Part shown: one piece after another, positions 2,132 through 48,368 of the stretch | Layout of the letters: each line of letters starts with the position of its first letter | Position numbering within the stretch: position 1 is the stretch's first letter | Source of the DNA: a virus | Lineage: Duplodnaviria; Caudoviricetes | Reading direction: 5' to 3' (one strand) | IMG/VR virus record: IMGVR_UViG_3300022660_000065 | Span: 24,187-88,186 of that record | Length of the DNA stretch: 64,000 bases | Translations under genes and position numbers: made by a program | The notes under the pieces: model-generated | What the model was told of the DNA's origin: nothing | Seen by the model: the letters and a program-made list of their open reading frames with translations, nothing else | Database searches by the model: none

Positions 2132-2455
2132 ATGGCTAAAACAATCTATATAACAGAAGCACAGTTAAATACGCTTAAAAAATATATTCAAGAAGAAGGA
2201 AACTCATTGGAGATTACTGTAACCCCTGATGAAGGTGAGACTGTGGATGATGCAATTGCAAATTCTAAGGAGAATATTGAACAGGTGGCAGGCTCTCAAG
2301 CCGCTGCTGATACCAAATTCACTTTAAAGGGTAATGCGTTCGAAGGAAAGACTTATACTAAAAAAGAGATTGAAAAAAGCCGTCTTCATAAGACATTGAA
2401 GGAAGGTAAAAAATATACAAAAGAAGAATTCACAAAACATATCCTTAACAAATGA
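2132..2455 (+). CDS. Hypothetical virion-associated protein with N-terminal leader (MAKTIYITEAQL)
   Basis: 107-aa ORF after ACTATTTAT; leader resembles those at 2452, 39437, 45454 and 47673. Confidence 0.6.
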   Translation: MAKTIYITEAQLNTLKKYIQEEGNSLEITVTPDEGETVDDAIANSKENIEQVAGSQAAADTKFTLKGNAFEGKTYTKKEIEKSRLHKTLKEGKKYTKEEFTKHILNK

Positions 2456-3630
2456 GTAAAACAATCATCATAAACGAAAAGATATTGAACTCCCCTTTAT
2501 TAAAGGAGGGGATTCTTCTTAATGAACTCCCTGATGATATCCGTCAACAATTAAAAAACAACGATACATCATTGGGCTCAAGCCCGGCATTTCCTGATGA
2601 ATATGGCGATTCTTTCGATACTAAACTCACATTGAAACGTTTCGAGGAAACTAAGAAAATGCTTGAACGTATTGGGAAAATTGAAGGATGTGACAGTATT
2701 GAAAATGCATTGCCAATGCTTATTGAAAAATGTAAGAAAATAGAAGAACCAATTAAGGCTAATCTCGAAAAAATTGCATATAATTTTATTGTGGAACATT
2801 TTAATGTCCCTGAAGGTTCCATTAATTTTTCCACAGAACTTAAAGATAATCTTGAAGGCATTGGTATGAACGTAAGGGTTCAATCAGAGGATACTGATTT
2901 CGAGTTTGAAAATTCCGTTCATAAAAAAGAACTTAATGACGATATTAGAAAACGCAGGGTTATCAATGCACTCATGACCGGTGCGGCATTGAGGATATCT
3001 TCAAATATTAAACTGTACATCGCCGAGATATATGATTTGGAACCCAAACTCCCTGACTTATATCGAAAGATATTGGCATTGAATGATTATCTTCTTTTTA
3101 CTAACATAAATGATGTACCTGAGGATAAAACAAATCAATTAGGTATGTCTAAAATAACAATTGGTAATGAAGAGACGAAATCAGAGGTTGTTGTTGAGGC
3201 TTGCATTTTTCCAATTCTTATATATGAAGAGGTGAGAGCATTTTTAGAACTTTCTGCAGCACATGGTCTTCCAATGAAAAAAGAAGAAGCGAATTATGTT
3301 ATGTCCAAAGCAGATTATCTTCAGGCAGAACCTTGGGATATGAGGCTCGGTCCTGCCATGTGGGATAAATTGTCTGATATGATGGGTGATGTTGATTCCA
3401 AACTAATTCCTTATGTTTTTATGGAAATCTGTAAGTTAAAACCATCTAAATTCAACCTTCTTATGCAGGAAGTGCTTAGTGGAACAAAGAAAGGACATAG
3501 GGTTATACAAAATATTGTACAATATTGCACCGAAAATTACGAATACGATGATTTTCAAAATCGCATGAAAAAAATGAATGCTGATATTGCAATAATCAAC
3601 GATGAATATATAAGGCCTGAGGAGTTATAG
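2452..3630 (+). CDS. Hypothetical protein of the head gene cluster
   Basis: 392-aa ORF with ATGA overlap to the upstream gene; leader MSKTIIINEKIL...LLKE. Confidence 0.65.
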   Translation: MSKTIIINEKILNSPLLKEGILLNELPDDIRQQLKNNDTSLGSSPAFPDEYGDSFDTKLTLKRFEETKKMLERIGKIEGCDSIENALPMLIEKCKKIEEPIKANLEKIAYNFIVEHFNVPEGSINFSTELKDNLEGIGMNVRVQSEDTDFEFENSVHKKELNDDIRKRRVINALMTGAALRISSNIKLYIAEIYDLEPKLPDLYRKILALNDYLLFTNINDVPEDKTNQLGMSKITIGNEETKSEVVVEACIFPILIYEEVRAFLELSAAHGLPMKKEEANYVMSKADYLQAEPWDMRLGPAMWDKLSDMMGDVDSKLIPYVFMEICKLKPSKFNLLMQEVLSGTKKGHRVIQNIVQYCTENYEYDDFQNRMKKMNADIAIINDEYIRPEEL

Positions 3631-3681
3631 TTTTGTACATTAAAAACTATTTATCTACTAGACATTAAAACATTTAAAATC

Positions 3682-4410
3682 ATGTTGAAATCAAATCTTA
3701 CTGAGATAACAAAAAATAAAGTTGGAACCGGTCTTCTTTTGGAAAACGATGGCTACATTTCAATGTCTGAAGGAGAGAATAAAAAACTATTCGAATCTGT
3801 TAAGAAGATAAATGAGGGACTTAATGACGGTGAGTTTTACTGCCCTTATCCTTTTGTCGTACATGCTGTGTTCCAAAAATTTGGTATTGAAAACGCTAAC
3901 GGGCGTATATATCCGGAAGATGTACTTAAAAAGCAAGTGGCGATATATCAGCAAAAGATAAACGAGAAACGCGCTTATGGGGAAACAAATCATCCGGATT
4001 CAAGAACATCAGTAAATCTTGACCTTGTTTCAATGAATATCCTTGAACTTCATTGGGAAGGACAGACACTTGTCGGACAACTTGAAGTAATCACAACACC
4101 GGGTTTTAGAAAGTATGGTATCGCAAGTTCAACAGGAGACCTTACAGCAAATTTACTTCTTCAGGGCCTTAAAATAGGCGTGTCTTCAAGAGGTGTTGGT
4201 TCTGTTGAACATAAATTTGGAAAGTACATAGTGGGGGACGATTATGAAATCATTTGTTGGGATTATGTTAGTGACCCAAGCACCAGAAATGCATGGGTTG
4301 ACATCGAAAAAGAAAAATTAACCCCATATCTTGAAAATACGGAAAATAAAAAACCAATTCTTTCAGAGAATACAAAATTGGATAAATTTAGTAAATGGTT
4401 GAATGATTAA
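3682..4410 (+). CDS. gp21: Prohead core protease (T4 gp21-like)
   Basis: GETNHP, GVSSRGVGS and WDYVSDPS motifs typical of gp21 proteases; position upstream of scaffold and MCP. Confidence 0.92.
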   Translation: MLKSNLTEITKNKVGTGLLLENDGYISMSEGENKKLFESVKKINEGLNDGEFYCPYPFVVHAVFQKFGIENANGRIYPEDVLKKQVAIYQQKINEKRAYGETNHPDSRTSVNLDLVSMNILELHWEGQTLVGQLEVITTPGFRKYGIASSTGDLTANLLLQGLKIGVSSRGVGSVEHKFGKYIVGDDYEIICWDYVSDPSTRNAWVDIEKEKLTPYLENTENKKPILSENTKLDKFSKWLND

Positions 4411-4510
4411 TTAATTCATTTATTTCTATCTAAATTGTTCGTTTTTAGATATTTTCTGAAAATATATGATATTTATTTTAAAAATAATGTAAAAAATTGC
4501 TTGTTTTCTA

Positions 4511-5923
4511 ATGAGTACAACTAATAAAAATAACAAAAAGACAGTTTCAGAGGCTCTCCTTGAAATGGATAAGGTGTCCAAAGCCCTCAAGGAAGAAAGC
4601 AAGGCTACTCTGTCTTCACTTCTCTCAGAGGCAATCAAAGAATATCTTAATGAAGAGATTGGTGCTGATGATGAGGAAGAGAAGGATGATGAATATTCAA
4701 TCGAAGATGACGCTGCTGAGAATGAGAATGATGCTGACGAAACCACAGTAGATGATGAGGGTGCTGAAGAGGAAATACCTGCTGAGGAACCTGAGGCTAA
4801 TGCTGAGGACCTGAATGAACCTGAGGAAGGTGATGGTGAAGAATGGTCAGGACTTGACGACTTCAAAGTAGATGATGAAACATACGATTTGACTACCGGC
4901 GAGAAAGGCGATGAAACACTCGTAAAGGTTTATAAACTCCTTAAGGATACAGACCAAGTAGTTGTCAAACAAGAGGGTGACAGCGTATCATTGAAGGATA
5001 ATGAAACTGGTGCTGAGTATGTCATAAAGACCGGATGCGAAGAAGAGGCTCCTGTCGCTGAAGAAAACGAATTTGAGTTTGAATTTGATGACGAGGAAGA
5101 GACTCCTGAAGCAGAAGGCGAATTTAATAACGACGAAGAAGACGAAAAAGTAATGGAAGGAAAAGAAATGGTATACGAGATTGACCTCGGATACACAGAC
5201 AACTACCAAGATAAGGACCCAATTCAAGGACTTAGCAACAACGAGCCTTCTAAGTCGGGAAAATCTTGGCACAAAGGCGTTCCAACAGGAACTGAAAAAC
5301 CTTGGGCTTCTAAAGGTGATGATGCACCGTTTGAGGAAAAAGCCGCATGTAATGAAGAGGAATTGCTCACCGACATCGCTGCAGATGATATTGCAAGCGG
5401 AGAGGAGATGCCTGTAGAGGAAGGAACTAATGTAACCCTCCCTAACAGAAGAAAAAAAAGCAAGAGCCATTCAATGCAGCAGAAGGATTATCCAAAGGTT
5501 GCACATCATGATTCACAGAACGGAGACTATAAGGCTCTTGAGGAAATGGTGAAGAAACTTCAGAAGGAAAACAAGGAAATGAAGGCTATGATTCCTCAGA
5601 TTAAGAAAGCGATGAATGAAAGTGTTCTTGTTAACTACAAACTTGGACGAATCGTTAAACTTATTTCTGAGAACGCAACAACAAGAAAAGAAAAGATTGA
5701 TATCATCAATCGTTTCAATGAAAATGCTAAATCAATCAGCGAAACAAAGAGCCTCTACGAATCAATCAAGAGAGAACTTAACGCTTCAGCAAATTCAAAG
5801 AAACCTGTTCTTGAAAACAACGGAATCAAGGCTGAAAAACCACAGGTCGTTGAAACAACAGTATATCAGTCGAACGACCTTAAGGAAATGCTTGACTTCA
5901 TGAAGAGAATGGAGAAATGCTAA
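4511..5923 (+). CDS. Prohead core scaffold protein (gp22-like)
   Basis: Acidic 470-aa ORF with a C-terminal coiled coil, between protease and MCP as in T4 (21-22-23). Confidence 0.75.
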   Translation: MSTTNKNNKKTVSEALLEMDKVSKALKEESKATLSSLLSEAIKEYLNEEIGADDEEEKDDEYSIEDDAAENENDADETTVDDEGAEEEIPAEEPEANAEDLNEPEEGDGEEWSGLDDFKVDDETYDLTTGEKGDETLVKVYKLLKDTDQVVVKQEGDSVSLKDNETGAEYVIKTGCEEEAPVAEENEFEFEFDDEEETPEAEGEFNNDEEDEKVMEGKEMVYEIDLGYTDNYQDKDPIQGLSNNEPSKSGKSWHKGVPTGTEKPWASKGDDAPFEEKAACNEEELLTDIAADDIASGEEMPVEEGTNVTLPNRRKKSKSHSMQQKDYPKVAHHDSQNGDYKALEEMVKKLQKENKEMKAMIPQIKKAMNESVLVNYKLGRIVKLISENATTRKEKIDIINRFNENAKSISETKSLYESIKRELNASANSKKPVLENNGIKAEKPQVVETTVYQSNDLKEMLDFMKRMEKC

Positions 5924-5970
5924 TCCTTAAAAAACAAATAAATAAGAATAAACAACATTAGAACATAATT

Positions 5971-7791
5971 ATGGCTAACGAATTTTTAAGAAGTGGTCAG
6001 TTCGAAAGCATTGAACTGAACGAACAGAAGAAAGTTAGAGGAATGATTAACGAGCGTTGGGACAAGCTCGGACTTACTGCAGGTCTCGACGGATATATCA
6101 AAGATAATATCGCAGCCCTCTACGAGAATGAGGTTAAATACCTCCTTAATGAAGCAACTGCTTCTGACAACAGCGGCTCATTCGAGACTGTTGTATTCCC
6201 TATCATCCGCCGTGTATTCAGCAAGCTCCTTGCTAACGACCTCGTGTCAGTACAGGCAATGAACCTTCCTATCGGAAAACTTTTCTTCATCCTCCCTGTA
6301 ACTTCAGAGCGTCAGTGGAGCGCAGAGGAAATGGCTGATGGTGTAACAGGTTCACACTACGGACTTATGGGTTATGAAAGAACTGACCGTAAGGATGGTT
6401 CACAGCACAACCGCTTCTATCTTCCTGATGAGGCTGTTAACGGTGTTGACAGAACTAACCCTGAGGTAACTCAGTACATGGAGAAGTCTCTTTATGACCT
6501 TTTCTACAACGATTTCCTTTATGATAACTCTAAGGGTAAAATCACTATCAAGGTTTCTGATAAGGTAACTCCTAAGAAATGGGATAAGGGTGTCCTCGCT
6601 GATGCTGCTGAAGATTTCTCAGATGTTCCTGTATTCGGTCTTGACGGTACTGTACGTAACGTAATCCTTGAGGTAGGTGGTTTCGCATCTTACAACGCAG
6701 GTAAACTTACAGGTCCTGACGGAAACGAAATGGATACTGAGGCATTCCTCGCATCTCTTAAGGTTATCGCTCCTGCTATCGACGGTGGTGAGAACGCTTC
6801 TTCTTTCGCAGAAGGTGAGTCTCTTCAGTTCCGCGTTGTAACTCAGAAGTATGGTAAGGGCATCGTAGAGTATGGCAACCCTTGCTCTGCAGAAGGTAAG
6901 ATTCTCCTTGAGGTTGACCTTTCTAAGCCAGTTATCAAGCAGCAGGCAACTGTTGACGGTTATGTAGGTGTTCCTGCAGCAGCTCTCGCAGGTAAGAAGT
7001 TCCAGGTTGCTTGGGCTCAGTACGATTCACTCGAACTTGAGACTGAGATTGGTGAGGTTTCTTTCAAACTCGATTCAGTAACTGTATCAGTTGAGGAACG
7101 CAAACTTCGTGCTACTTGGTCTCCTGAACTCGCACAGGACGTTGCAGCATTCCATAACATCGACGCTGAGGCTGAGCTTACCGCTATCCTCTCAGAGCAG
7201 ATTGCAGCAGAGATTGACCGTGAGATTCTCCGTGACCTCCGTAAACTCGCTCCATGGCAGGCTCGTTTCGATGTAAACGGTTGGAGACGTATGGCAGGTT
7301 ATTCAACTAACTATACTCAGAAAGACTGGAATCAGGAACTTATCACTAAGGTAAATCAGATTTCTGCTCAGATTCAGAAGTCAACTCTCCGTGGTGGTGC
7401 TAACTGGCTCGTAGTTTCTTCAGAGATTAATGCTCTCCTTAACAACCTTGAGTATTTCCACGTAACTGACGCTTCAGCTGAGTCTGATACTTATAACATG
7501 GGTATCGAGCGCGTTGGTTCACTTCAGGGACGTTATCAGGTATATGTTGACCCATATGCTCCATCTTATTCACTTATCATGGGACACAAGGGTAAGTCAC
7601 TCCTTGACACAGGATACATCTATGCACCATACGTGCCAATGCAGTTGACTCCAACAATGTATAATCCTTTCAACTTTGCACCTGTTAAGGGAATCATGAC
7701 GAGGTACGCAAAGAAATGTGTTAACAACAAATTTTATGGAGGCATAAAGGTCGATGGCCTTGTAACATGGAACATTAACGAACTTCGCTAA
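5971..7791 (+). CDS. gp23: Major capsid protein (T4 gp23-like, with an insertion domain)
   Basis: VSVQAMNLPIGKLFF, RKLRATWSPELAQD, AEAELTAILSEQIAAEIDREI, YIYAPYVP and GIMTRYA motifs; strongly biased codon usage. Confidence 0.97.
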   Translation: MANEFLRSGQFESIELNEQKKVRGMINERWDKLGLTAGLDGYIKDNIAALYENEVKYLLNEATASDNSGSFETVVFPIIRRVFSKLLANDLVSVQAMNLPIGKLFFILPVTSERQWSAEEMADGVTGSHYGLMGYERTDRKDGSQHNRFYLPDEAVNGVDRTNPEVTQYMEKSLYDLFYNDFLYDNSKGKITIKVSDKVTPKKWDKGVLADAAEDFSDVPVFGLDGTVRNVILEVGGFASYNAGKLTGPDGNEMDTEAFLASLKVIAPAIDGGENASSFAEGESLQFRVVTQKYGKGIVEYGNPCSAEGKILLEVDLSKPVIKQQATVDGYVGVPAAALAGKKFQVAWAQYDSLELETEIGEVSFKLDSVTVSVEERKLRATWSPELAQDVAAFHNIDAEAELTAILSEQIAAEIDREILRDLRKLAPWQARFDVNGWRRMAGYSTNYTQKDWNQELITKVNQISAQIQKSTLRGGANWLVVSSEINALLNNLEYFHVTDASAESDTYNMGIERVGSLQGRYQVYVDPYAPSYSLIMGHKGKSLLDTGYIYAPYVPMQLTPTMYNPFNFAPVKGIMTRYAKKCVNNKFYGGIKVDGLVTWNINELR

Positions 7792-7820
7792 TCTAACTTG
7801 CTGAAAAGCAACTACTTATA

Positions 7821-7988: not shown

Positions 7989-9893
7989 ATGAGAGAATTT
8001 ACCAATGAAGAAATAACTTCAATAATTGAAGATTATTCTAACAAAATTAGCACTGTTAAAATTTCTAAAAAGTTTAGAACATCACCACAAAAAATAAAAA
8101 ACATATTAATGGATAACGGAATTGACATTCATGACCCATCTAAAACCGTAGGATTCACCCGTAAACCAAATAACTATTGGGAGAATAGGGATAATATATC
8201 CGAGGCTATGAAAAAATGTAAAACAAGAAGAGAGTTTTCACAAAAATATAGTCGTGCTTATTCTATTGCAAGAGAGAAAGGATGGTATGAAGAAATGGCA
8301 AATCTTTATTTTAATAAAGAGGATTCATTTAACAATTATACTGCCAAAATTCATATGGTTTATGCTTATGAATTTAAAGAATTAAACCATGTTTATGTGG
8401 GGAGAACATTGGATTTGAAGAGGAGACACCGTGAACATAGTAAAGATGAGAAAGATGGCGTTTTTAAATTTGCAAAAGATAATGGATGTAATATACCAAA
8501 TGTTAGAATATTAGAAAAAGATTTAACAGCAGAAGAAAGTCAAATACAAGAAAATTTTTGGATTGAAGATTATTTAAGGCATAAATGGTTAATAATTAAT
8601 AAATCATCAACAGGTATTAATAAAAGTTCATTGGGCGGTTCATTTAGAAAATGGAATTACGAAAAATGTAAGATAGCAGCCTCCAAATGCACAAGTAAAG
8701 AAGATTTTAAAAATAAATTTGTTGGCGCATATAATATTTCACGAAAATATGGGTGGATTTATGATTTTTTCGATTTTAACTTAAAAAAAGAAAACGGTTG
8801 TTTTAATACATTTGAACAATGTATTAATGAAATCAAAAAATATAAAACTCTTGGGGGAATCAGAAAAAATTATCCATTTTTATATCATAAAATATGTAAA
8901 AACAAATGGAATGATAAAGTTAGAGATATTTTGGGATATACCCCTAAACAGGTTTCAAAAAAAGTATATAAATTAAAAGATAAAGCAATAAAGGAAGAAT
9001 ATAAATTGTTGGATGTAAATACAAAAAATCTAAGTAATAAAGAACTCATTTTTTATTATATGATATATGCCCCATCAGTCAATATTTACCCTAAAATTTT
9101 GAATATAAGCAAATATGGGGAAAAAACTATTTTTGTGATAGAAGATAAAAAAATCGCATTCGTTGTTATTGGTGTTAATAACTATAGAAACAAAAAAATA
9201 AATATTGAAAATACATACGGATATTCAGTACATGTTATATATGATTGTGAAATAAACCCCATGGATTTCAAATTAGAAAATAAAATTGATTCCATTTTAA
9301 ACATTAGGCGAGAACTTGGATGTATTACTTTAAATGCAAGAGATTGTAAAGTTGGAGAAATTTGTTCTCAATGCGCCAACGAATTTTTAAATACTAATCA
9401 TATACAAGGTGAATGTAGTTCCACAATTTATTTGGGTGCAACATATGATAACATTTTAGTTGGCGTCATGACTTTTAAGAATGGTTCTTTAACTAATAAA
9501 GGATGGGAGTTAAATAGATTTGCAACAGATTTCCATTTTATAGTGAGAGGCTTGGGTAGTAAGATGTTTAAATATTTCATAAACCACTATAATGTTGATA
9601 GTGTAATATCATTTGCTGATAGAAGGTGGACATCTTCATTAAATAATGTTTACACCAAAATGGGGTTTGAATTCTGTCATATTACACCACCTTCATATAA
9701 ATATCTATCCGTAGATACATCTGACTCCAAATTGTATAATAAATTTGGGTTTAGGAAACAAACGTTACTTAGAAAACATCCCGGCTTTCTAACCCCTGAA
9801 ATGACAGAAACGGAAATGGCTAAGAAACTTGGTTACGATAAAATATGGGATTGCGGACTCATAAAGTATATATGGAAAAAACCTGAGGAATAA
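7989..9893 (+). CDS. Free-standing homing endonuclease-like protein (GIY-YIG domain plus Hef-like C-terminus)
   Basis: VYAYEF..VYVGRT..KRRHREH (GIY-YIG-like). C-terminal NHIQG/WELNRFA/SFADRRW/IWDCG block shared with 53124 and 55845. Lower GC than the flanking genes; inserted directly after MCP. Confidence 0.75.
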   Translation: MREFTNEEITSIIEDYSNKISTVKISKKFRTSPQKIKNILMDNGIDIHDPSKTVGFTRKPNNYWENRDNISEAMKKCKTRREFSQKYSRAYSIAREKGWYEEMANLYFNKEDSFNNYTAKIHMVYAYEFKELNHVYVGRTLDLKRRHREHSKDEKDGVFKFAKDNGCNIPNVRILEKDLTAEESQIQENFWIEDYLRHKWLIINKSSTGINKSSLGGSFRKWNYEKCKIAASKCTSKEDFKNKFVGAYNISRKYGWIYDFFDFNLKKENGCFNTFEQCINEIKKYKTLGGIRKNYPFLYHKICKNKWNDKVRDILGYTPKQVSKKVYKLKDKAIKEEYKLLDVNTKNLSNKELIFYYMIYAPSVNIYPKILNISKYGEKTIFVIEDKKIAFVVIGVNNYRNKKINIENTYGYSVHVIYDCEINPMDFKLENKIDSILNIRRELGCITLNARDCKVGEICSQCANEFLNTNHIQGECSSTIYLGATYDNILVGVMTFKNGSLTNKGWELNRFATDFHFIVRGLGSKMFKYFINHYNVDSVISFADRRWTSSLNNVYTKMGFEFCHITPPSYKYLSVDTSDSKLYNKFGFRKQTLLRKHPGFLTPEMTETEMAKKLGYDKIWDCGLIKYIWKKPEE

Positions 9894-10030: not shown

Positions 10031-10309
10031 TTACCATCGTTTGGAATCAATTTGCTTCATAAAATTTGAAAGGAATTGTCTGTATTTTAGGGACACATCA
10101 CCAAGATTATCAAGTTGCTCTTGAGGGATAACATCCAAATAGTCGTTTATTAAATAACGTGTAATTCTATTAATTTCAGTTAATTCATTCTGTACACCAG
10201 TATTCCCCCATGGCATATACTCTTCACTTTCTTTCAATACTTTCTTTACTGATTCAGAAATAACTTTTTTCAAGTCAGATTCTGTTAATCTTATTGTGTT
10301 TTTCTTCAT
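10031..10309 (-). CDS. Small hypothetical protein with putative capsid-targeting leader
   Basis: Starts MKKNTIRLTESDLKKVISESVKKVLKE. Confidence 0.65.
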   Translation of the reverse strand: MKKNTIRLTESDLKKVISESVKKVLKESEEYMPWGNTGVQNELTEINRITRYLINDYLDVIPQEQLDNLGDVSLKYRQFLSNFMKQIDSKRW

Positions 10310-10330: not shown

Positions 10331-10837
10331 TTATTGATGTCTTTCATTAAAATCTTGTTCGTCAGGAGTAAGATGCCTTTTCTTATAAGTATCCAAATCC
10401 CAATATCTATAATTATCTAATGCATAATCTAATTTTTTCTCAATATCATCTGCAACTTCATCATGTGACCTACCCCCAAATGTTGAATTAAATTTGTCTT
10501 TCTCATGACCTTTCAAAGAAACCAACTGTTTCTTTTTTCTTTGAACATAAGTTTGCACTTCAGAAAAAAGATTTTTTATTTTTTGCGCAAGAATTGGACC
10601 TTGCGTGTTTTCAGGTTGTTCATCATCTTTATACCAATGTTCATATGCTTCACCTTTCAATGCCTGTTGCATTTTATTACATGCTTCTTCAAAATCGTAC
10701 ATGGCACCATCAAGCATATCAACTCTGTTATCAGATTTCTTTACGGCATCTTCTGCAGTTCCCCAAGAGATTTCGTTTAAAATCCTTTTTGTTGATTCGA
10801 CCAATATGTAATTAAATTCTTTCTCAGCCAGTTTCAT
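10331..10837 (-). CDS. Hypothetical protein with putative capsid-targeting leader
   Basis: Starts MKLAEKEFNYILVESTKRILNE; ACTATTTAT motif on the minus strand at 10861-10869. Confidence 0.65.
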   Translation of the reverse strand: MKLAEKEFNYILVESTKRILNEISWGTAEDAVKKSDNRVDMLDGAMYDFEEACNKMQQALKGEAYEHWYKDDEQPENTQGPILAQKIKNLFSEVQTYVQRKKKQLVSLKGHEKDKFNSTFGGRSHDEVADDIEKKLDYALDNYRYWDLDTYKKRHLTPDEQDFNERHQ

Positions 10838-10929
10838 AATTAAAACCCAATTATCTCCCTATAAATAGTTTAATGAAACTAAATGTGTTTTTCTTCTATA
10901 TTGGATATTTATAGTAAATGGTTTATTGC

Positions 10930-12384
10930 ATGAAAATTACTGAAAATCAACTCTATGAAATGTTCTCAAAGAGTGTTAACAAGATTTTGATGGAAGGGCC
11001 TTCACAACAGAATGGCCCGGATGTCGACGGAACATTTAATCAGGAGTATGTTGATAAGAATATAAAGAAACGTGGGCTTGTTGACCCGAGTCAAAATGGT
11101 AAAGCCAAGATTGATGGAAAATATGCAGCGGTAAAAGGAGGGAAAACGGCTTTAGGCGCTGCTGGTATGAGGGTTGGCACAGTTCTTGGTGCTGCGGCAA
11201 TGGGTGCAATTGCGGGAGTTGGTGGTGCAACACTTGCTCTTGGAAACATTCTTAACATCGCAGGCCTTGGTATTCTTGTGGGTAACTATGTTTCTAACAT
11301 AAATGCACTGAATAAGGTTTCAAAACTTGAATTCCCCAAGAACCCACAAAGCGCAATGAAATATGCAAGATATGCTGCTGCCGAGAGGGTTAATGCTCAA
11401 CAGATTTGTCTTAACATTCAGCAGAATCTCAAAAATGCAATGAATGCGTGGAATCTTGTTTATACAGGAGAAACTTATGATTGGCAGACGCTTCTTAATA
11501 CCATTAACAACCAAGGAGGACAGACAAAAGCACGTTTTAAGGACCGTGGTCAAACACAACAAATTGATGTTGATTTTGATAAAAATCTCACTGACAAAAA
11601 TGCGGGACAGAACGAAAGCATTTATCATGGCGATTTGTTAGAAGCCACAGATTACGATAAAACAATAAAAAGCGTTGCTGAATTCAAGACCGATTTTCAG
11701 CAGGATAAAGCGGGGGGCGAACAGGTTCTTGTTGGACTTGGTGAAGCATATGTTAAATCATATGGAGTGTGGATGCAGTGGACACGTTATATTAACGTTC
11801 TTGTTCATAAATTTCAGAAATATGGAGTTACTTGGGAACGTGTAATTCATTCAAACAATGAGTTTGGTGTTAAAAACACATTGATTACATTTGCCAATGA
11901 ATTGTTTGGTACTAAGATACCACTTCAGGGGCTTGATGGTAAGGAGGAATATCAGGGTAAATCTCAAACGAAAGAAATCATACTTCGCCTTGTTGCCAAC
12001 AATTGGGGAACCGGTGCGAAATATGGACGTTACAAAGGAACATCATATACATTACTTCAGCAAGAAAAAACAAACAATTTCTTCGCACTTGAACCACTTG
12101 ACTACACAACAATGCAGAGTAACGGAAGTTGGGTTGGGGGACGTTTGTATTCAAACCCACTTGGAAACGGTATGGTGGAGGTTATTAGAGTCAACAATGG
12201 ACAAAATGCCCAAAACACTAATTTGGGACAATGCCCTGATTTTGATAATTTAAGCAAGGGACAGGGAATCACCTTCAATTATGCACCAAACATGGTTTCA
12301 AATACTACACAGGACCCTAATGGTAAAAACGTATATATATTGAAACCTAACGCCGCATTTAGTATGATTGTATTTGATGATTAA
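10930..12384 (+). CDS. Putative internal virion protein with Gly/Ala-rich hydrophobic segment
   Basis: Leader MKITENQLYEMFSKSVNKILME (ATG 10930); stretch GAAGMRVGTVLGAAAMGAIAGVGGATLALG...LGILVG; GATATTTAT at 10904. Confidence 0.6.
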   Translation: MKITENQLYEMFSKSVNKILMEGPSQQNGPDVDGTFNQEYVDKNIKKRGLVDPSQNGKAKIDGKYAAVKGGKTALGAAGMRVGTVLGAAAMGAIAGVGGATLALGNILNIAGLGILVGNYVSNINALNKVSKLEFPKNPQSAMKYARYAAAERVNAQQICLNIQQNLKNAMNAWNLVYTGETYDWQTLLNTINNQGGQTKARFKDRGQTQQIDVDFDKNLTDKNAGQNESIYHGDLLEATDYDKTIKSVAEFKTDFQQDKAGGEQVLVGLGEAYVKSYGVWMQWTRYINVLVHKFQKYGVTWERVIHSNNEFGVKNTLITFANELFGTKIPLQGLDGKEEYQGKSQTKEIILRLVANNWGTGAKYGRYKGTSYTLLQQEKTNNFFALEPLDYTTMQSNGSWVGGRLYSNPLGNGMVEVIRVNNGQNAQNTNLGQCPDFDNLSKGQGITFNYAPNMVSNTTQDPNGKNVYILKPNAAFSMIVFDD

Positions 12385-12400: not shown

Positions 12401-13210
12401 ATGATAGAAAAATGGTATAGGGGACATGAAGGTTCAAGGCATGCACTTGACAATTTTGGGATAATATGGTTATCAGCCGACCCTGAATATGCTCAGTTAT
12501 ACGCCGATGAATATCCTGATGGAATTGTGTCAACAGTGTGGGTTGATATGGATAAACTTAATTATTTCGATAATTATTATGATAATAATTTTGATGTGTA
12601 TGACCCCGACATGAGATTGGTTAGGGAATATATGGAAGAGGGTGGAAATTGTTATACCTTTCCCGTGGGAGATGGAATAGATGTTCTTGCATTAGTTTCA
12701 ACAGAACCGGTAATAAAAGTAGAAAGAAAAATAGTTGAAAATATGAAACTTAATTACAATGATATTAGATATATCATGCACGAAGCAACAAAAAGAATTC
12801 TTTCAGAACGTTATAATCACATGAAAGAGGAAGATTTCAGTATCGATATATTTGAACTTGAAATTGACCCATCATTTGAAGAGGAACTTGATGACTATTC
12901 ACGAATGGAAGGTGGTATGAATGAAGTTCATGTAATATGTACATTTAATTGTTTTGAAGGCCAAGAGGGTTCTTATGAACAGGAACCAATATCCCCATAT
13001 TGCAATCTTGAAGATGTACAGCCGGGAAATAATGAAGGCCTTATGCAAAACATGTCTCCTGAATTGTTCGCAGCCGTAATTAACTCAGCTCTTGACTATG
13101 TTTGGAAGCATCAGCAAGAGTTTGAAGAGGATTTCATTACTGAGTGCGAACCGGACCCTATGGATTTCTTCGATGAGGATGAATATCGTTATAAAAAATT
13201 AGGATATTAA
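12401..13210 (+). CDS. Two-domain protein: ADP-ribosyltransferase-like N-terminus plus internal leader and acidic domain
   Basis: WYRG...GIIWLSADPEYAQLYA...GIVSTVWV resembles the ART fold; internal in-frame MKLNYNDIRYIMHEATKRILSE at 12743. Confidence 0.5.
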   Translation: MIEKWYRGHEGSRHALDNFGIIWLSADPEYAQLYADEYPDGIVSTVWVDMDKLNYFDNYYDNNFDVYDPDMRLVREYMEEGGNCYTFPVGDGIDVLALVSTEPVIKVERKIVENMKLNYNDIRYIMHEATKRILSERYNHMKEEDFSIDIFELEIDPSFEEELDDYSRMEGGMNEVHVICTFNCFEGQEGSYEQEPISPYCNLEDVQPGNNEGLMQNMSPELFAAVINSALDYVWKHQQEFEEDFITECEPDPMDFFDEDEYRYKKLGY

Positions 13211-14429: not shown

Positions 14430-16493
14430 ATGATGGCTAATAAGAATAGAAACATATTTTCGGGCTTGAATGACGTTCTTTTTGGTAGTTCCATACCAAA
14501 AGAATTTAAGAAAACGACAACATATAATATCGGTAATTCAAACCCAGTTCTTTATTCAACCAATAGTAGAGAGGATTATGAACAGAAGAAACTTCAATTG
14601 AGGCAACAAAAACTCCTTTCCTATCAATGGGTGAAATCAGGCGTGGATAACATGCAGGATTCCCTTGCAGGTCTCACAAGTGTAAAACTTATGTACAGGG
14701 ATGCTGACCTTATGTGCTCAGATACATATATTTCAAGTGCATTGGAGATTGTATCGGATGAGGCTTGCTGTATCAATTCCAAAGGAAAGATGCTTAATAT
14801 CTATTCAAAATCAGAAAGAATAAAAGCAGTTCTTGAGGATTTGTTTGTTAACAGATTGGATGTTAATACAATACTTCCTGCAATATGTTATAACATGTTG
14901 AAATACGGTAACGAATATATGCTCTTTAACCTTAATATTGAAGAGGGTATTACAGGATGGAGAGAGATACCACCATATGATATGGAACGTTATGAAAACG
15001 GTATGGATAGTCCTTATGTTGCACCCGCCAATTTGGTTCATGGTAATGGTTTAAAACCAGAAGAAACTAAATTTGTGCGTGTAGGTAAGAATGAAAGTCT
15101 TCCTTATAGGAGTTGGCAAATCGCCCATTTCCGTTATTTAACCGACACATTTTTCCTCCCTTATGGAGTTTCTTATATACATAAGGCACGTAGGGCTTGG
15201 AGAATGTTGTCAATGATGGAAGACTCAATGTTGATATATCGTCTCGACAAAAGTGTTGAAAGAAGGGTATTCAAAATATATGTGGGCGCAATTGATGAAC
15301 AGGATGTTCCTGCTTATGTACAGGATGTTGCTAACAATTTCAAACGCACACCGCTTATTGACCCCGCAACAGGACAACTCGACCTTAAAAAGGGGTATGC
15401 TGATGTGACTTCAGATTATTTCATCCCTGTCCGTTCTGAGAACGCCCCTAACCCAATTGAAACTCTTCCAAGTGCACAGAACAACACACAGATGGATGAT
15501 ATTGAATATATGAAGAATAAGGTTCTTGCAGCACTTCGATTGCCTAAAACTTTCTTGAATTTCCAAGAAGCACAAGGAAAGGGGCAAAATCTTTCTATCA
15601 TGGATATTCGTTTCTGTAGAATGGTTAATAGGGTACAGCAATTCCTTATTATGGAGTTGAATAAGATTGCCATTACCCATCTATATCTTCTTGGTTTTGA
15701 AGATGACCTTACCAATTTCTCAATTACAATGAATAACCCATCGCCTCAGATAGAAGCACAGGAACTTGAAGATATTACTAAGAGGGCGACTGTGGCACAA
15801 CAACTTCTTTCAGACCCAGGTAATGGAATCCAAATGTGGAGTCTTCATAGAGTTCTTAAAGAAATCATGAAGATGACAGATAAGGAAATTGCCGACAACC
15901 TTAATGAGATACGTCTTGAAAAGGCTCTTGCTGCGGAACTTATGAAGACAGAACAGATTATTAAGAGAACAGGCCTCTTCGACCCTATTGATAATATCTA
16001 TGGCGAAATTGATGCTGAATATCAGGAAGGTAACCCTCAGGAAGGTGGTGGCATGGGTGCCGGTGGAGCCATGGGAGGCGGTGGATTCGGTGCAGGCCTT
16101 GGTGGTGGAATGGATGACATTGGAAGCGATGTTGACAGTCTCGGTGCCCCGGGAGCCGATACAAGTGGCGATATAGGCGGCGAAACAGGGACAGTTGATA
16201 TGGGGGGAGCCGCTGCCGCTGATGCAGGAAATGCCACAATGGAAAACACAACAAAAAACAAGAATCTAATTCTCGAAAACATTTTTATGGGAAAGCATGA
16301 TATCAAGAAATCGGTAATTAATGAATATATTAACCGCCTTAAAGAAAATGATATTGATGAAAACGAAAAGATGAACACCCGTGTTGATTTTGTCAGTGAA
16401 AATCTTATTCTAAATGAAACAACCCAATCACTTTTAGATGGGCTTTCCAAAAGATTGAATGAGATTGATAAGGAAGGTGATAATGTTCTTTAA
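14430..16493 (+). CDS. gp20: Portal protein (gp20-like)
   Basis: MMEDSMLIYRLDKSVERRVFKIYVG, DYFIPVR, IETLP, DDIEY...LAALRLPK, DIRFCRMVNRVQ motifs. Confidence 0.95.
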   Translation: MMANKNRNIFSGLNDVLFGSSIPKEFKKTTTYNIGNSNPVLYSTNSREDYEQKKLQLRQQKLLSYQWVKSGVDNMQDSLAGLTSVKLMYRDADLMCSDTYISSALEIVSDEACCINSKGKMLNIYSKSERIKAVLEDLFVNRLDVNTILPAICYNMLKYGNEYMLFNLNIEEGITGWREIPPYDMERYENGMDSPYVAPANLVHGNGLKPEETKFVRVGKNESLPYRSWQIAHFRYLTDTFFLPYGVSYIHKARRAWRMLSMMEDSMLIYRLDKSVERRVFKIYVGAIDEQDVPAYVQDVANNFKRTPLIDPATGQLDLKKGYADVTSDYFIPVRSENAPNPIETLPSAQNNTQMDDIEYMKNKVLAALRLPKTFLNFQEAQGKGQNLSIMDIRFCRMVNRVQQFLIMELNKIAITHLYLLGFEDDLTNFSITMNNPSPQIEAQELEDITKRATVAQQLLSDPGNGIQMWSLHRVLKEIMKMTDKEIADNLNEIRLEKALAAELMKTEQIIKRTGLFDPIDNIYGEIDAEYQEGNPQEGGGMGAGGAMGGGGFGAGLGGGMDDIGSDVDSLGAPGADTSGDIGGETGTVDMGGAAAADAGNATMENTTKNKNLILENIFMGKHDIKKSVINEYINRLKENDIDENEKMNTRVDFVSENLILNETTQSLLDGLSKRLNEIDKEGDNVL

Positions 16494-31937: not shown

Positions 31938-32666
31938 CTACTTATTATGAGCAATTGATTTAACCTCAACCCATTCAGATTCTTTATATTCTTCCAAAGA
32001 AGTTGAATTTGTATATGACATTGCAGATTTTAGGTAATCTATTTCATTTTCAACCCATCCATCAATGGTGTATTCAACTTTTTGATATTTAACGAGTCCC
32101 TCAGCAGTTTTCAACTTAACATCTTTAAGACCGTTTGCTTCCGCTACATGTTTTTGCGCTGTTTTGGTACTCATACCATAATATTGTTTCCAAACAACAA
32201 ATTCACCTTTCTTCCAACGCTCTTTCAACTTATCAAATTTAAGCCTATCAAGCTCTCTTCCATAATAAAGAAGTGTCTTTAGAGGACGAAGAATTTTATA
32301 ACCACGAATATTCCAATAGAACTTACCATAAGTTGTTTTTCCTGCTGATTCAAATGCTTTATTAAAAAGACTTCCAATCATTACATAATCAGCATAAATA
32401 AGAGCCTTTTGGATATCTCTATATCCCTTGATACCTCCATCAGCAATAACTTTACACTTACCATCAATCTTCTTACGTTCCTCATGAATTTCTTTAAGAA
32501 GTGAGAAATAAGGCATGTAAATACCTGTGTTTGAAGCAGTTAAACAGCCTGAATTATGGACAATAATTCCATTAATATTATATGAGCAATTATCTTTAAC
32601 ACTCAAATCATAAACAAAACCATTATATTCATGCTTTGTTATTGATGTAATTTTCGTAATCTTCAT
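31938..32666 (-). CDS. guaC: Split intein C-half (38 aa) fused to GMP reductase/IMPDH C-terminal extein (204 aa)
   Basis: MKITKITSI...VYDLSV...GIIVHN|SGCLT, then VIADGGIK, DYVMIGSLF, YYGMST, AEG, LKSAMSY. Confidence 0.9.
   Translation of the reverse strand: MKITKITSITKHEYNGFVYDLSVKDNCSYNINGIIVHNSGCLTASNTGIYMPYFSLLKEIHEERKKIDGKCKVIADGGIKGYRDIQKALIYADYVMIGSLFNKAFESAGKTTYGKFYWNIRGYKILRPLKTLLYYGRELDRLKFDKLKERWKKGEFVVWKQYYGMSTKTAQKHVAEANGLKDVKLKTAEGLVKYQKVEYTIDGWVENEIDYLKSAMSYTNSTSLEEYKESEWVEVKSIAHNK
32553..32666 (-). mobile_element. Split intein C-part (IntC)
   Basis: Block F (VYDLSV) and block G (IVHN) followed by Ser+1; has its own Met start. Confidence 0.9.
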
Positions 32667-33663: not shown

Positions 33664-33721
33664 ATATTTTATATTTATATATAAATAGTATGACTATTTA
33701 AGAAATGGCATTGGGGGTGAA

Positions 33722-34549
33722 CTACAACTCAATTAAACTTTCATTTTCTTTATCAATTAACCACACAGGTTTCCAATAAGCATATTCATGAATATTTTCA
33801 TCATTTATTTTATCAATATCTTCATTTTTAACTACATAAAATTCATGATTTTCAGTACATTCAATACCATTTATTTCGTAAATTGTGTCATTCTTTTCAA
33901 ACTTATGTTTTTCAAGTACTTCTTTGAATTCACCAGTATGTGTCTGTACACAATCACCTATTTCAATGTCTTTTATTCTCTTTAAGCCTTTATTAGTTTT
34001 AACCTCCATATTTTCCGTGAAGCAGCCCCCACCAATTCCAACTCTTACATAATCTACTCTCGCCTTTTCATATTCAATATATGTCTTAGGATTCGCAATA
34101 TTTCCTGTCATGATAACAATTTCAGGATGCTTCATCTTAATTGCCTTAACGATATCAAGAAGATTCTCCATATGACCGTTTGCAAGGTCAATACAAATTT
34201 TGCATCCCCACCCATTCTTTATAGTATCATAAAAAACATATTTCTCAAGATTATTGTCAACGAACAAATCCTTTGCTTCACTGAGAGAAAAAGCAACAAA
34301 ATTATTAATCTCGAAAAGCATCTGAATACGATTTGACAAAGGTACGGTACGTGGAACTACAATGTTAAGTGAGTTTCGCGCAAAGTCATCATAATTTCCT
34401 TCATTAATTACCGTATCCATTGGTGAAACAAAAATTGGTAGCCTACCAAATTCATCGCATGGGTTACACTCATTACGTGTCTTTATTTTAGTTATAATCG
34501 CAGGTACAATCGCGACATCATCATAACCAAGTTTTAATCTATCACTCAT
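33722..34549 (-). CDS. guaC: GMP reductase/IMPDH N-terminal extein (175 aa) fused to split intein N-half (100 aa)
   Basis: LGYDDVAIVP, FVSPMDTV, CIDLANGH, MTGNIA, VRVGIGGG|CFTENMEVKT...TENHEF...SLIEL*. Confidence 0.9.
   Translation of the reverse strand: MSDRLKLGYDDVAIVPAIITKIKTRNECNPCDEFGRLPIFVSPMDTVINEGNYDDFARNSLNIVVPRTVPLSNRIQMLFEINNFVAFSLSEAKDLFVDNNLEKYVFYDTIKNGWGCKICIDLANGHMENLLDIVKAIKMKHPEIVIMTGNIANPKTYIEYEKARVDYVRVGIGGGCFTENMEVKTNKGLKRIKDIEIGDCVQTHTGEFKEVLEKHKFEKNDTIYEINGIECTENHEFYVVKNEDIDKINDENIHEYAYWKPVWLIDKENESLIEL
33725..34024 (-). mobile_element. Split intein N-part (IntN)
   Basis: Block A starts at Cys1 (CFTENMEVKT), block B is TENH (TxxH); followed by a TAG stop. Confidence 0.9.
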
Positions 34550-38747: not shown

Positions 38748-39437
38748 TTATTCTTGGTAAGTTATACCATTATTATTCTTTTTTGTATGGGCCTGCCCAT
38801 TACCTGAATTTTTAGTACCCCCTGCTTTCTGATAGACATTTTCAAAACCCATCGCAGCGCGGTTTGCCTTATCGCTTTCCACAGCACCCCTATATGATTT
38901 CAATGAGTTCTGAACCCATTGTTCCATTTTTTCGCCACCAATGAGATTATAGTTGTTAATATCCTTTTTACCTTCTCTTTCAAAAAAACTTTTCAGTTGT
39001 TTCATCTCATCATATTTGATATTCCTCTGATTGATAAGGTTATTAAGACGGTCCCAACCTGCAGCATTTTTATCCCCGTTATACATCCTGCAATTATTCT
39101 GTAATTGAGAATATAATTCTTCCGGAATGGTCCAAGTCCTACCCTGACCCATAGGGACATTCTCACTCAATGTTTTTTTTTTCTCTGCACTGCAATTCAT
39201 TACAAGAGGCTGATGACGTGAAGTACCATTAAAGCCATATGTCTTAGATAAAGTCCTTGCATAATCATCACCCGTCATTGGGTTACCATCCTTTTTCTTG
39301 GATAATTTACCACTAACAGAAACCTCAGTATTTCCATTGAATTCTTTAAAATCCCCTTCCATATTATCAAGATATGAAGAATCAACACCGAGTATTTCAT
39401 TTAATTGTCTTTCAGATATGATAATCGTTTTTCCCAT
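38748..39437 (-). CDS. Hypothetical protein with leader (MGKTIIISERQLNEIL)
   Basis: 229-aa ORF; ACTATTTAT on the minus strand at 39457-39465. Confidence 0.6.
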   Translation of the reverse strand: MGKTIIISERQLNEILGVDSSYLDNMEGDFKEFNGNTEVSVSGKLSKKKDGNPMTGDDYARTLSKTYGFNGTSRHQPLVMNCSAEKKKTLSENVPMGQGRTWTIPEELYSQLQNNCRMYNGDKNAAGWDRLNNLINQRNIKYDEMKQLKSFFEREGKKDINNYNLIGGEKMEQWVQNSLKSYRGAVESDKANRAAMGFENVYQKAGGTKNSGNGQAHTKKNNNGITYQE

Positions 39438-39476
39438 TAGTATACAATATATAACGATAAATAGTTGAATAAAAGA

Positions 39477-43925: not shown

Positions 43926-44573
43926 TTACATGAGGAGATTATCCACATTATTCCCTTCAGAAATTGATTGCCTTATCTCTGTTGAGGATATATTTGGTAC
44001 TATTGTCCGACTTATTTCAATTTTGTATGCAGAGTTTTCATGTAAAAAATTGGTTTTAAGGTCTTCAAGGACTGCGACATCATCTTTTCCTCGCGGGAAA
44101 ACCAATACACCATACTCACTTAAAATTCTCTTATAGTCTTTCCATCCCCTCATCTGTCGAAGATTATCAGCACCAATCACTAAAGTAAAATCAGCATTGG
44201 AATTTCTTCTCCTGAGTTCATCCAACGTATTGATTGTATAGTATGGAGGCATCATTTCTTTTTCAATTTCCGAAACAGTTACATTCCATAATTCATGCCT
44301 TGTAAGAGCATTGTAAGCATTGTTCATTCTATCATCTACCGTATCTTCAGAAACAGTTTCCTTCAATGGATTTTTAGGAGTAACAACAAGATAGACCCAA
44401 TCATAATTTTCTGATAGGTCTTTAATGATTGCCTGATGCCCAATGTGAAGAGGGTTGAAAGAACCACCAAATACTGCAATCTTTCTTTTAGGTTCCTGTT
44501 TCCTAAAAATCAAATTTAAGAACAAGAATATTATAAATGCTATTGTCAAAAATGTTGCTATAATCACTATCAT
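43926..44573 (-). CDS. nadD: Nicotinate/nicotinamide mononucleotide adenylyltransferase with N-terminal hydrophobic helix
   Basis: AVFGGSFNPLHIGH (HxGH), YTINTL, IGADN, ISSTEIR. Confidence 0.9.
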   Translation of the reverse strand: MIVIIATFLTIAFIIFLFLNLIFRKQEPKRKIAVFGGSFNPLHIGHQAIIKDLSENYDWVYLVVTPKNPLKETVSEDTVDDRMNNAYNALTRHELWNVTVSEIEKEMMPPYYTINTLDELRRRNSNADFTLVIGADNLRQMRGWKDYKRILSEYGVLVFPRGKDDVAVLEDLKTNFLHENSAYKIEISRTIVPNISSTEIRQSISEGNNVDNLLM

Positions 44574-45454
44574 ACTTCCCCAAATATATGATTTAATTTT
44601 ATTAAATTACCATTTTCAAATAATGAATCATTTCTTTCTTCATTTTCCTTTCTAATTTTCACCCACACCTTTGCTGTTTTTCTAAGAAAATAATCATAAG
44701 ATTTTTCGATAATATCATTCAATTTTTCGCGTAATTCTTTTTCATCGTTAAAGATAATGAATTCATTTTCCTTAATAAATTTTTCCATCGTTAAAAAATT
44801 AGGTGTGTTAAATGGCGCATTGTTGAAAAATTTTTTTATTGTTGTTAATGTTTTTAATACATTATTTAATTCTGTTTTTTCAATGAAATCTTCATAAGAG
44901 TTTACTCTTTTATATCTAACAGAGTTATAAGCGTCATTCACATATGCATCAATTTCAAAACGTTTTGAAAAATATATTAATTTAGAAAAATTAGAAAGAT
45001 ATTGATTATTGGATTGAAAATATTGCACAGCCAATTGATATTTTTCAGTACTTAAACTTCCTTTTTTCATTTTCGTTTGATAATAATGCTCAACCTCATG
45101 CTGAATTGTGTCTAAGGTATCTGAGATATTATATTCATCCCCAATAGCAATTACAGTTAAGTACATAGTGTTTTCACTCGTTGAATATCCATTTTTATAT
45201 TCTTCAGAATTAATGGAATACCATGTTGAAAAATTTTCAATATTATCAAATAATAAAAGTTTCCATTCAACTTTTAAATCATCTACAAAAAATATACCAT
45301 GTTTATTTTCAGTCATTTCACCAACTTCATCATTGAATTTTTTTTCTATTTCATGTGTAATCCTTTTGACTTCATCAGATATACCTAACTCTTCTTTAAT
45401 CAAATCAAGAAGTTTCTGATATTGTTTCTCATTTACAATTATTTTTTTACTCAT
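44570..45454 (-). CDS. Leader-bearing zincin-like metallopeptidase
   Basis: TIQHEVEHYYQ (HExxH) plus downstream EIDAY; leader MSKKIIVNEKQY..LIKEE. Confidence 0.55.
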   Translation of the reverse strand: MSKKIIVNEKQYQKLLDLIKEELGISDEVKRITHEIEKKFNDEVGEMTENKHGIFFVDDLKVEWKLLLFDNIENFSTWYSINSEEYKNGYSTSENTMYLTVIAIGDEYNISDTLDTIQHEVEHYYQTKMKKGSLSTEKYQLAVQYFQSNNQYLSNFSKLIYFSKRFEIDAYVNDAYNSVRYKRVNSYEDFIEKTELNNVLKTLTTIKKFFNNAPFNTPNFLTMEKFIKENEFIIFNDEKELREKLNDIIEKSYDYFLRKTAKVWVKIRKENEERNDSLFENGNLIKLNHIFGEV

Positions 45455-45456
45455 AT

Positions 45457-47430: not shown

Positions 47431-47440
47431 TTTTTTTTGT

Positions 47441-47590
47441 CTCACACGCGCACGTGCGAAATAATTTAAATTAATCTAGAAATAATAAAATATATAAAAT
47501 AATATATAAATTATATTATATTTTATTTTTATATCTAAATATTAATTATATAATATATTATTAATCGCGTGTATACACACGCACACATGT
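47441..47590. other. Candidate replication origin / AT-rich unwinding element flanked by CACGC-rich boxes
   Basis: Only 3 G/C in 105 nt (47461-47565); flanked by CTCACACGCGCACGTGCG and CGCGTGTATACACACGCACAC; gene orientation diverges here. Confidence 0.45.
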
Positions 47591-47672
47591 AAAGATAAAG
47601 ATATTTTTTGAATTTACCAAATATTTTCTTACAATTTTTCTAACTATTTATAAAGAAATGTTTTAATCTTAT

Positions 47673-48368
47673 ATGAAACTGATTGTCAATGAAAAACAAT
47701 ATAATTGGATTCTTAATGAAATGAAGAAGGAGATGGTTACTGAAATGGCTTATCCCGCTTCATTTAATTTTGATGAATTCAGACAATGTACATCATTTGC
47801 TCAAAGAGTCAGGTATTGTGAGGAACGTCTTCAAAGAATTTCTCAAGGAACGTCACGAATTGTATACAGAGTCGATGATGAAAAAGTCCTGAAACTTGCT
47901 AAAAACAAGAAAGGAATTGCTCAAAATGAAGTTGAAATCAGGCTTGGAACTGAACCTTATTATACTTGTTTTGCTGATGTATACGAATACGATGGGAATG
48001 GTTTGTGGGTAGAAATGGAAATATGTAGAAGAGCGAAGAAAAGTGATTTCAAGGCAATATATGGTGTCCCATTTGAAGTACTTTGTTGTATGATGTACCA
48101 ACAGGCGGAAAATCAAAGTCCACGAAAGAGTTGGTATCGTCCTTTTGCTGATTATGAGCCAATTGTACAACAGGTTTGGGAAGGGGAGGAAAATGACCTG
48201 CAGATGCTTTTCATGTCCCTTCAGGAATATATAGGTGGGGAGATGCTCAGTGGAGTTGGTGACCTTTGTAGGATTTCAAGTTGGGGAATTGATAGCGAAG
48301 GCTATTTTAAATTGGTTGATTACGGGCTTACTGACGAGGTATTTGATAATTTTTATAAAAGGAGATAG
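47673..48368 (+). CDS. Protein kinase-fold protein with leader
   Basis: SQGTSRIVY (G-loop), VLKLA (Lys), NEVE, GDLCRISSWG (catalytic loop variant), LVDYG (DFG-like); ACTATTTAT at 47643-47651. Confidence 0.7.
   Translation: MKLIVNEKQYNWILNEMKKEMVTEMAYPASFNFDEFRQCTSFAQRVRYCEERLQRISQGTSRIVYRVDDEKVLKLAKNKKGIAQNEVEIRLGTEPYYTCFADVYEYDGNGLWVEMEICRRAKKSDFKAIYGVPFEVLCCMMYQQAENQSPRKSWYRPFADYEPIVQQVWEGEENDLQMLFMSLQEYIGGEMLSGVGDLCRISSWGIDSEGYFKLVDYGLTDEVFDNFYKRR

Follow-up and report, generated by a model that had tools for sequence, protein, structure and literature searches.

In bacteriophage T4, the prohead protease gp21 cuts after L/I-x-E, and the internal proteins bear targeting propeptides of 10-19 residues that it removes (PMC9026906). 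A family of protein leaders resembling this system, hereafter the tag, is described here from a 64,000-nt stretch of DNA (the window), which comprises bases 24187-88186 of the 88,186-bp virus record IMGVR_UViG_3300022660_000065. The tag is probably a T4-style capsid-targeting propeptide removed by the prohead protease, longer than its T4 counterpart and modular, which would also act as a joint between protein modules and would be employed on a far larger scale.

The likeness to the T4 capsid-targeting sequence, carried by the propeptides of IPI, IPII, IPIII and Alt, extends to the signal, the machinery and the cargo. In both cases a short leader common to unrelated proteins ends in L/I-x-Glu, the phage encodes a protease of the gp21 family together with gp23-, gp20- and gp22-like head genes, and the cargo resembles host-takeover and anti-defence proteins, including Alt-like ART-type modules. 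On the other hand, the leader has 22-26 residues (17-19 in a short form), as compared to 10-19 in T4, and its sequence bears no resemblance to the T4 signal; the 88 kb contain at least 14 tagged sites, distributed over about a dozen unrelated proteins, against a handful in T4; and the copies are often internal or repeated, forming multi-module precursors. Moreover, the tag is spread over 9164 protein clusters of uncultured Bacteroidales jumbo phages. In T4, a signal with Glu changed to Asp was found to enter proheads uncut. None of the tagged proteins matched a Pfam or PHROG internal-protein family, and the lack of homology to the T4 internal proteins is the reason why the tag is treated as an analogue of the T4 signal in function, not as a homologue. 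Encapsulins offer a further parallel, as a short terminal peptide brings diverse cargo into an HK97-fold shell, which is what we propose for the tag; however, encapsulin cargo-loading peptides are uncleaved, usually C-terminal and unrelated in sequence, and they work without scaffold or protease.

Other jumbo myoviruses, such as phiKZ, 201phi2-1 and SPN3US, also encode gp21-like proteases (gp175, gp245) and many head-internal and ejection proteins, and two head proteins of SPN3US have N-terminal propeptides of 20 and 24 residues, the protease cutting after Glu (PMC10052503). In contrast to the Leu or Ile found here, their proteases favour Ala, Ser or Gly three residues before the cut (A-x-E), and most of their propeptides are long (111-254 residues) and share no portable motif. 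The polyvalent proteins (Iyer et al. 2017, PMC5512222) likewise unite several conflict-type domains in one polypeptide and are encoded beside virion packaging genes, but their processing was proposed to depend on built-in peptidase domains, whereas the joints described here bear the tag and fit the rule of the prohead protease.

A preliminary description of the window had quoted five leaders of 22 residues as class 1 and five others as class 2, and all of them translate as given: 10837(-), 20814(+), 12743(+), 10930(+) and 10294(-), the last within open reading frame (ORF) 10031-10309, for class 1, and 2132, 2452, 39437(-), 45454(-) and 47673 for class 2. A hidden Markov model (HMM) of the five class-1 leaders, proposed in the same description, recovered them, with i-Evalues of 1e-11 to 7e-13, when the entire 88-kb record was translated in all six frames, and a 250-aa ORF upstream of the window proved to contain a sixth class-1 copy; one iteration with relatives brought the i-Evalues to 4e-15 to 4e-11. 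The sites in the window, some of them behind a short promoter-like motif considered below, are the following:

2132-2197 (+): class-2 (short-form) leader of ORF 2132-2455, the first gene behind the promoter-like motif, with the protease gene downstream
2452-2526 (+): class-2 variant leader of ORF 2452-3630 (392 aa), a conserved head-module protein, from its translation and homologues
10229-10294 (-): class-1 leader of ORF 10031-10309 (92 aa), the nearest to the family consensus (54.9 bits)
10772-10837 (-): class-1 leader of 22 aa at the N-terminus of ORF 10331-10837 (168 aa), from the HMM, with ACTATTTAT upstream at 10861-10869
10930-10995 (+): class-1 leader of a 484-aa glycine-zipper protein (ORF 10918/10930-12384), from the HMM
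12743-12808 (+): internal class-1 leader at residue 115 of ORF 12401-13210, joining its N-terminal domain to its acidic C-terminal domain
20814-20879 (+): class-1 leader of a 478-aa WG-repeat protein (ORF 20814-22250), from the HMM
39396-39437 (-): class-2 leader of ORF 38748-39437 (229 aa), with ACTATTTAT at 39457-39465
45392-45454 (-): class-2 leader of an HExxH protein (ORF 44570-45454), with Glu21 invariant in 26 homologues
47673-47744 (+): class-2 leader of a kinase-like protein (ORF 47673-48368), with Glu24 invariant and followed by the invariant start of the predicted mature domain

The leader subtype of 12743-12808 sits on an unrelated cargo in a relative, and in relatives the homologues of the head-module protein 2452-3630 have an L-N-E site preserved at about residue 25. 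A 1248-aa polyvalent protein encoded just upstream of the window has a tag copy that joins its WG-repeat part to the next module. A loose 8-residue pattern of the tag start (three hydrophobic residues, then Thr/Asn/Ser-Glu-x-Gln/Asp-hydrophobic) occurs 11 times in six frames, against 1.7 +/- 1.4 in shuffles, and 10 of the 11 matches directly follow the first Met of a real ORF. The mature parts of the cargo proteins are unrelated, as had been claimed, since no pairwise BLASTP similarity was detected (best E 0.07). Leader-to-leader nucleotide identity is only 47-76%, and the codons of conserved residues differ about half the time, which indicates selection on the protein and, therefore, a protein-level module rather than a DNA repeat. 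Stop-codon recoding as the source of the fused multi-tag ORFs was ruled out, because the window ORF with an internal tag (12401-13210) is open under translation table 11.

The division into two separate classes did not survive the comparison with relatives, and class 2 is better described as the short form of the class-1 tag, from which it differs by the loss of one to two helical turns. Most orthologues of the kinase-like protein carry a class-2 leader of 17-19 residues, but two of the 32 aligned (P0296 and P0298) show a full class-1-type leader at the same place, and the joint of the polyvalent protein starts class-2-like and ends class-1-like, so that a single family accounts for both forms. 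A tag profile of 33 positions, built from 42 copies of the window and its relatives (alignment A1), matches 9164 representative proteins among 1.84 billion at E <=1e-3, and 1431 at E <=1e-10. The family is restricted to one phage group: the five complete relatives analyzed all carry the tag, with 7-20 copies each, and, apart from one metagenome-assembled genome (MAG) discussed below, a profile search of 200 other Bacteroidales genomes found no copy. A diverged tag occurs in a distant phage of 484 kb (LR756508), in tandem small genes near the capsid gene. TnpB/OrfB-like ORFs adjoin these tandem genes (L101:478-1080, L104:2246-3052), and variable tagged regions seem to attract mobile elements, TnpB/OrfB in LR756508 and IS1595 in the present phage. 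With a two-tag protein as query, tblastn gave no match in 50,697 deposited phage genomes, and among the 120 listed database relatives of this protein none has a name or a Pfam domain. The tag itself has no Pfam or PHROG match, the ESM Atlas yielded only unnamed viral clusters below the trust threshold, and full-text searches for the motif strings gave nothing relevant; no paper describing the tag was found, and the Jug-phage paper does not mention the leaders.

The tag end agrees with the gp21 rule position by position. In 442 copies from 255 proteins, the tag consists of a short strand-like start and a strongly amphipathic helix that ends in hydrophobic-Leu/Ile-x-Glu, with Glu at P1 (the residue before the predicted cut) in 95% of the copies, Leu/Ile at P3 in 90%, Ile/Val at P4 in 87% and Arg/Lys at P5 in 82%, whereas P2 and P1' vary freely. 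As a mark of the leaders, (I/L)xE is informative through its fixed register and position-specific conservation, but the bare tripeptide does not discriminate, and its density per protein, tried as a marker of head or tagged proteins, failed to single them out. When the last 11 tag residues were turned into a position matrix, the other proteins of the window yielded no additional sites. The same rule can be read in the head module of the window, whose genes are:

3682-4410 (+): prohead protease of the T4 gp21 family (Peptidase S77), matching phrog_207 and the T4 gp21 structure PDB 5JBL (E 3e-10)
4511-5923 (+): acidic scaffold-like protein, with a leader-like N-terminal helix and two nearly invariant LxE sites
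5971-7791 (+): gp23-like major capsid protein, matching T4 gp23 structures (E 2e-27), with the propeptide end predicted at residues 58-61 (nt 6142-6153)
14430-16493 (+): gp20-like portal; phrog_207, phrog_138 and phrog_213 are the families matched by protease, capsid and portal

The LLNE noticed earlier at residues 58-61 of the capsid protein is indeed present, and in 79 relatives Leu occupies P4 in 72 and Leu or Ile occupies P3 in 77, P2 is variable, P1 is always Glu (Glu61, 79 of 79) and P1' is small. A second conserved site, L-Y/F-E, precedes it by nine residues, and 12 residues separate the 58-61 site from the downstream block aligned with mature gp23 residues 28-65, as compared to 27 residues in T4. 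The protease has a conserved L-I/L-E site at residues 19-21, as judged from its relatives, and T4 gp21 likewise carries an L-I-E-type site near its own N-terminus. In the distant 484-kb phage, both the tag end and the capsid site read Leu-Leu-x-Glu, so that a test of their covariation there has no power. One contig with a tagged gene also encodes Peptidase_S77 and Gp23.

Three families of orthologues change from a variable leader to a conserved domain directly after the terminal Glu, among them the kinase-like and the HExxH family. The kinase-like leaders differ from one another in length and sequence, while Glu24 and the next four residues are invariant and P3 is always Ile, Leu, Val, Met or Cys; two long forms have another domain in place of the leader and retain the junction. 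All 26 homologues of the HExxH protein have Glu21, and their conserved domain begins two residues after it. AlphaFold2 (AF2) models of both proteins (pLDDT confidence scores of 88 for the kinase-like and 82 for the HExxH protein) show a less confident leader helix and a confident globular domain after the junction, and the only stretch with pLDDT <50 outside the chain ends corresponds to residues 20-25 and 17-24, respectively, at the predicted cut. The kinase-like protein also has an invariant Met after the predicted cut (Glu-Met-Ala-Tyr-Pro), and an internal start could thus yield a leaderless, unpackaged form as well. As for a possible partner of the leader, hhalign matched the leader profile to the N-terminal helix of the scaffold, with the terminal Glu placed opposite a Glu (P 2e-4), and the scaffold ranked best of ten families tested against the leader profile (P 0.003), a weak signal.

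Tagged genes are linked to head genes. In the window they lie between the capsid (5971-7791) and portal (14430-16493) genes, and in relatives they occupy either this interval or the one that separates portal from protease, where up to four follow one another. A further link comes from ACTATTTAT, which occurs 15 times in the window, against 1.5 expected, and is always upstream of an ORF and co-oriented with it. It lies 15-45 nt ahead of the protease, sheath, tube and other genes (e.g. 3646-3654, 50116-50124, 55774-55782(-)) and precedes four tagged genes (2132, 10837-, 39437- and 47673), in line with the late motif that had been suspected. The copy before the kinase-like gene is:

47643-47651 (+): ACTATTTAT promoter-like motif before the tagged kinase-like gene, one of the 15

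A variant, GATATTTAT, stands ahead of many tagged genes in relatives, and ACTATTTAT and GATATTTAT are probably the late or structural promoter of this phage group. In the relatives, the relaxed motif [AC]TATTTAT is found some 27-31 nt ahead of 53% of tagged ORFs and likewise precedes 80% of the protease and 55% of the scaffold genes, as compared to 24% of other ORFs (p 1.4e-5), while exact ACTATTTAT is not enriched before tagged ORFs across them (p 0.2).

The kinase-like fold of the protein encoded at 47673-48368, which has 1256 database homologues, is supported by the AF2 model and by Foldseek matches to APH, MTR-kinase and CDK (E 6e-5 to 1e-3); the WG repeats of ORF 20814-22250 are supported, with a weak Pfam match, and both the glycine zipper and the acidic tails can be read off the translations. 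As for the putative peptidase, HExxH is invariant in the 26 homologues, but Foldseek and VIA-align gave only generic helical and weak collagenase/M30 matches for the fold. A paralogue of this protein adjoins the scaffold gene in a relative. Directly upstream of the head module, the 1248-aa polyvalent protein (L083:6302-10048) contains WG_beta_rep (E 5e-11) and NTP_transf_2, stringing together WG repeats, an ART-like module and a nucleotidyltransferase upstream of the window. Also upstream of the window, a 267-aa protein (L082:12223-13026(-)) begins with a class-2 tag followed by InPase (E 6e-48) and Tad6 (E 8e-26) domains, and from this domain make-up the InPase+Tad6 protein, Tad6 being a Thoeris inhibitor, would be a candidate packaged anti-defence effector; InPase and polyvalent proteins have been predicted to be virion-packaged and injected (PMC5512222).

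Taken as a capsid-targeting propeptide, the tag would keep unrelated proteins within the scaffold core while the prohead assembles, like the capsid-targeting sequence of T4. The gp21-type protease would then cut after its terminal Glu, freeing the cargo inside the head, and the freed cargo would exit with the DNA at infection. Internal tags would be the joints at which multi-module and polyvalent proteins are split into separate effectors. Core binding, cleavage, head retention and ejection are the steps of this pathway that we infer.

Several observations weigh against such a pathway. Of the copies in the top database proteins, about half lie inside the chain or at its C-terminus, so the tag is not strictly N-terminal; these copies form joints in multi-module proteins, with up to three tag copies per protein and a median recurrence of about 84 residues, which space small acidic, aromatic-rich modules. 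If each tag were cut once, the module ahead of it would retain a tag at its C-terminus, and no consistent second site was found upstream of internal tags. With 22-26 residues conserved throughout, the tag exceeds what a cut site needs and is about twice the 10-residue signal of T4, and (I/L)xE tripeptides abound, a single protein having as many as 16. Compared by hmmsearch, the tag showed no significant match to families of scaffold, capsid, portal or protease (<=5.9 bits). No promoter-like motif is found within 60 nt of 47% of tagged ORFs, the tagged gene 44570-45454 is flanked by a helicase gene and an NMNAT gene, and complete relatives hold many tagged genes or clusters in accessory regions far from the head genes. 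In addition, the cultured T4-like relatives Flavobacterium phage immuto and Microcystis phage Mel-JY01 are without the tag, and two tagged genes of a Bacteroidales MAG lie beside IS1595 transposases (L087:1818-3693, L088:1291-2747). The genes of the T4 internal proteins are also dispersed, so that tagged genes far from the head weaken the model without refuting it. Every computational test that was run fits a T4-style leader removed by a protease; what does not fit the modular packaging leader as first formulated is the split into classes, the strict N-terminal position and some non-structural gene contexts.

One alternative is that the tag is a processing joint only, cut after Glu by the prohead or another protease, with head entry, if it occurs, depending on other features. 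The cut-site features are indeed the best conserved part of the tag, many copies are internal joints in multi-module proteins, and the junctions fall in low-confidence linkers. However, 3-4 residues suffice for a cut site, yet conservation reaches about 20 residues further upstream and takes in a strand-like start on which the gp21 rule makes no demand. Proteases of the gp21 type work within the prohead (PMC9026906), so their substrates need a way in; we consider this explanation unlikely. Another alternative is a docking or oligomerisation element unrelated to the capsid, which would engage a shared phage or host partner, such as a ClpB/ClpC-like AAA+ protein or a membrane, or bundle tagged proteins with one another, with Glu as the helix cap. 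The strong amphipathicity of the tag helix, its occurrence at any protein position and up to three times per protein, the location of tagged genes beside replication and metabolism genes and in accessory regions, and the AAA_2/ClpB_D2-small proteins encoded by the phage are all compatible with this function, which is nonetheless doubtful, as it leaves unexplained the near-invariant P1 Glu and P3 Leu/Ile with free P2 and P1', the same pattern at the end of the capsid-protein propeptide, the stop of conservation exactly at Glu and the link of tagged genes to head genes and to the promoter-like motif.

Explanations that deny the tag a function as a protein signal fare worse. That it is the 5' module of mobile gene cassettes, kept by recombination or IS1595-type transposition, is very improbable: codon usage differs at about half of the conserved residues, with the low leader nucleotide identity given above, core orthologues keep the tag, as the kinase-like protein does throughout its 1256 homologues, and a fourth IS1595 copy, in a relative, is away from any tag. 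All this stands against the IS1595 transposases found beside tagged genes in the phage and twice in the Bacteroidales MAG, and against the arrangement of tagged genes in variable tandem arrays. It is scarcely credible that the tag start merely reflects an A/U-rich, Lys/Ile-rich N-terminus that favours translation initiation in an AT-rich genome; Met-Lys-Lys does start many ORFs and the G+C content is 31-40%, but the conserved block spans at least 20 residues, occurs also internally and ends in an invariant Glu, and the tag-start pattern is about six times more frequent than in shuffles. An extension of the packaging model, which appears improbable, sees the tag as an address label that other elements may borrow: tagged proteins of the host or of transposons, linked to IS1595, would be loaded into the capsids of infecting jumbo phages and would either hitch-hike in the virion to the next cell or sabotage it as a defence.

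The source of the window is a jumbo phage of about 350 kb, T4-like and uncultured, of gut or rumen Bacteroidales. Its size follows from a 349,824-bp contig that encodes a protein identical to one ORF of the record (CheckV completeness ~25%) and from its nearest relatives, which are complete records of 344-412 kb from rumen and gut metagenomes. An IS1595-family transposase adjoins a tagged gene of this phage (L082:8280-9227, upstream of the window) and is 55% identical to the L087 transposase of the MAG, one of whose two IS1595 copies sits among housekeeping genes; the Bacteroidales membership of a MAG that shares this family with the phage agrees with the low G+C content of the latter. Sheath and tube genes are present downstream in the window, and large HNH/homing-endonuclease-like ORFs interrupt the head and tail modules at 7989-9893, 53124-54926(-) and 55845-57524, the first of which matches phrog_3339 and phrog_559, while the other two were assigned by their similar N-terminal sequence; in relatives, one or two such ORFs follow the capsid gene. 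ClpB/ClpC-like AAA+ pieces (AAA_2, ClpB_D2-small; one Pfam match) are found at L082:4172-5278(-) and in neighbouring ORFs, as well as at 31938-34549 of the window.

A last point is related to what the tag may tell about the infection strategy of these phages. The huge phages of gut and rumen Bacteroidales are abundant but uncultured, and only a minority of their genes has an assigned function. If the tag marks head-packaged proteins, a profile search would list what each phage delivers with its DNA, including here the kinase-like enzyme, the putative metallopeptidase, the InPase+Tad6 anti-Thoeris module and the ART/WG/nucleotidyltransferase modules of the polyvalent proteins, and the tag would also mark the exact points at which their precursors are cut. 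Should the address-label reading be true, the tag would let dozens of injected effectors be read from each genome, throughout a whole radiation of uncultured huge phages. The T4 capsid-targeting signal is already in use for loading foreign proteins into capsids, and with the tag its principle would reach a signal that is longer, modular and employed far more widely. What jumbo phages inject first would then be a question that sequences can answer.

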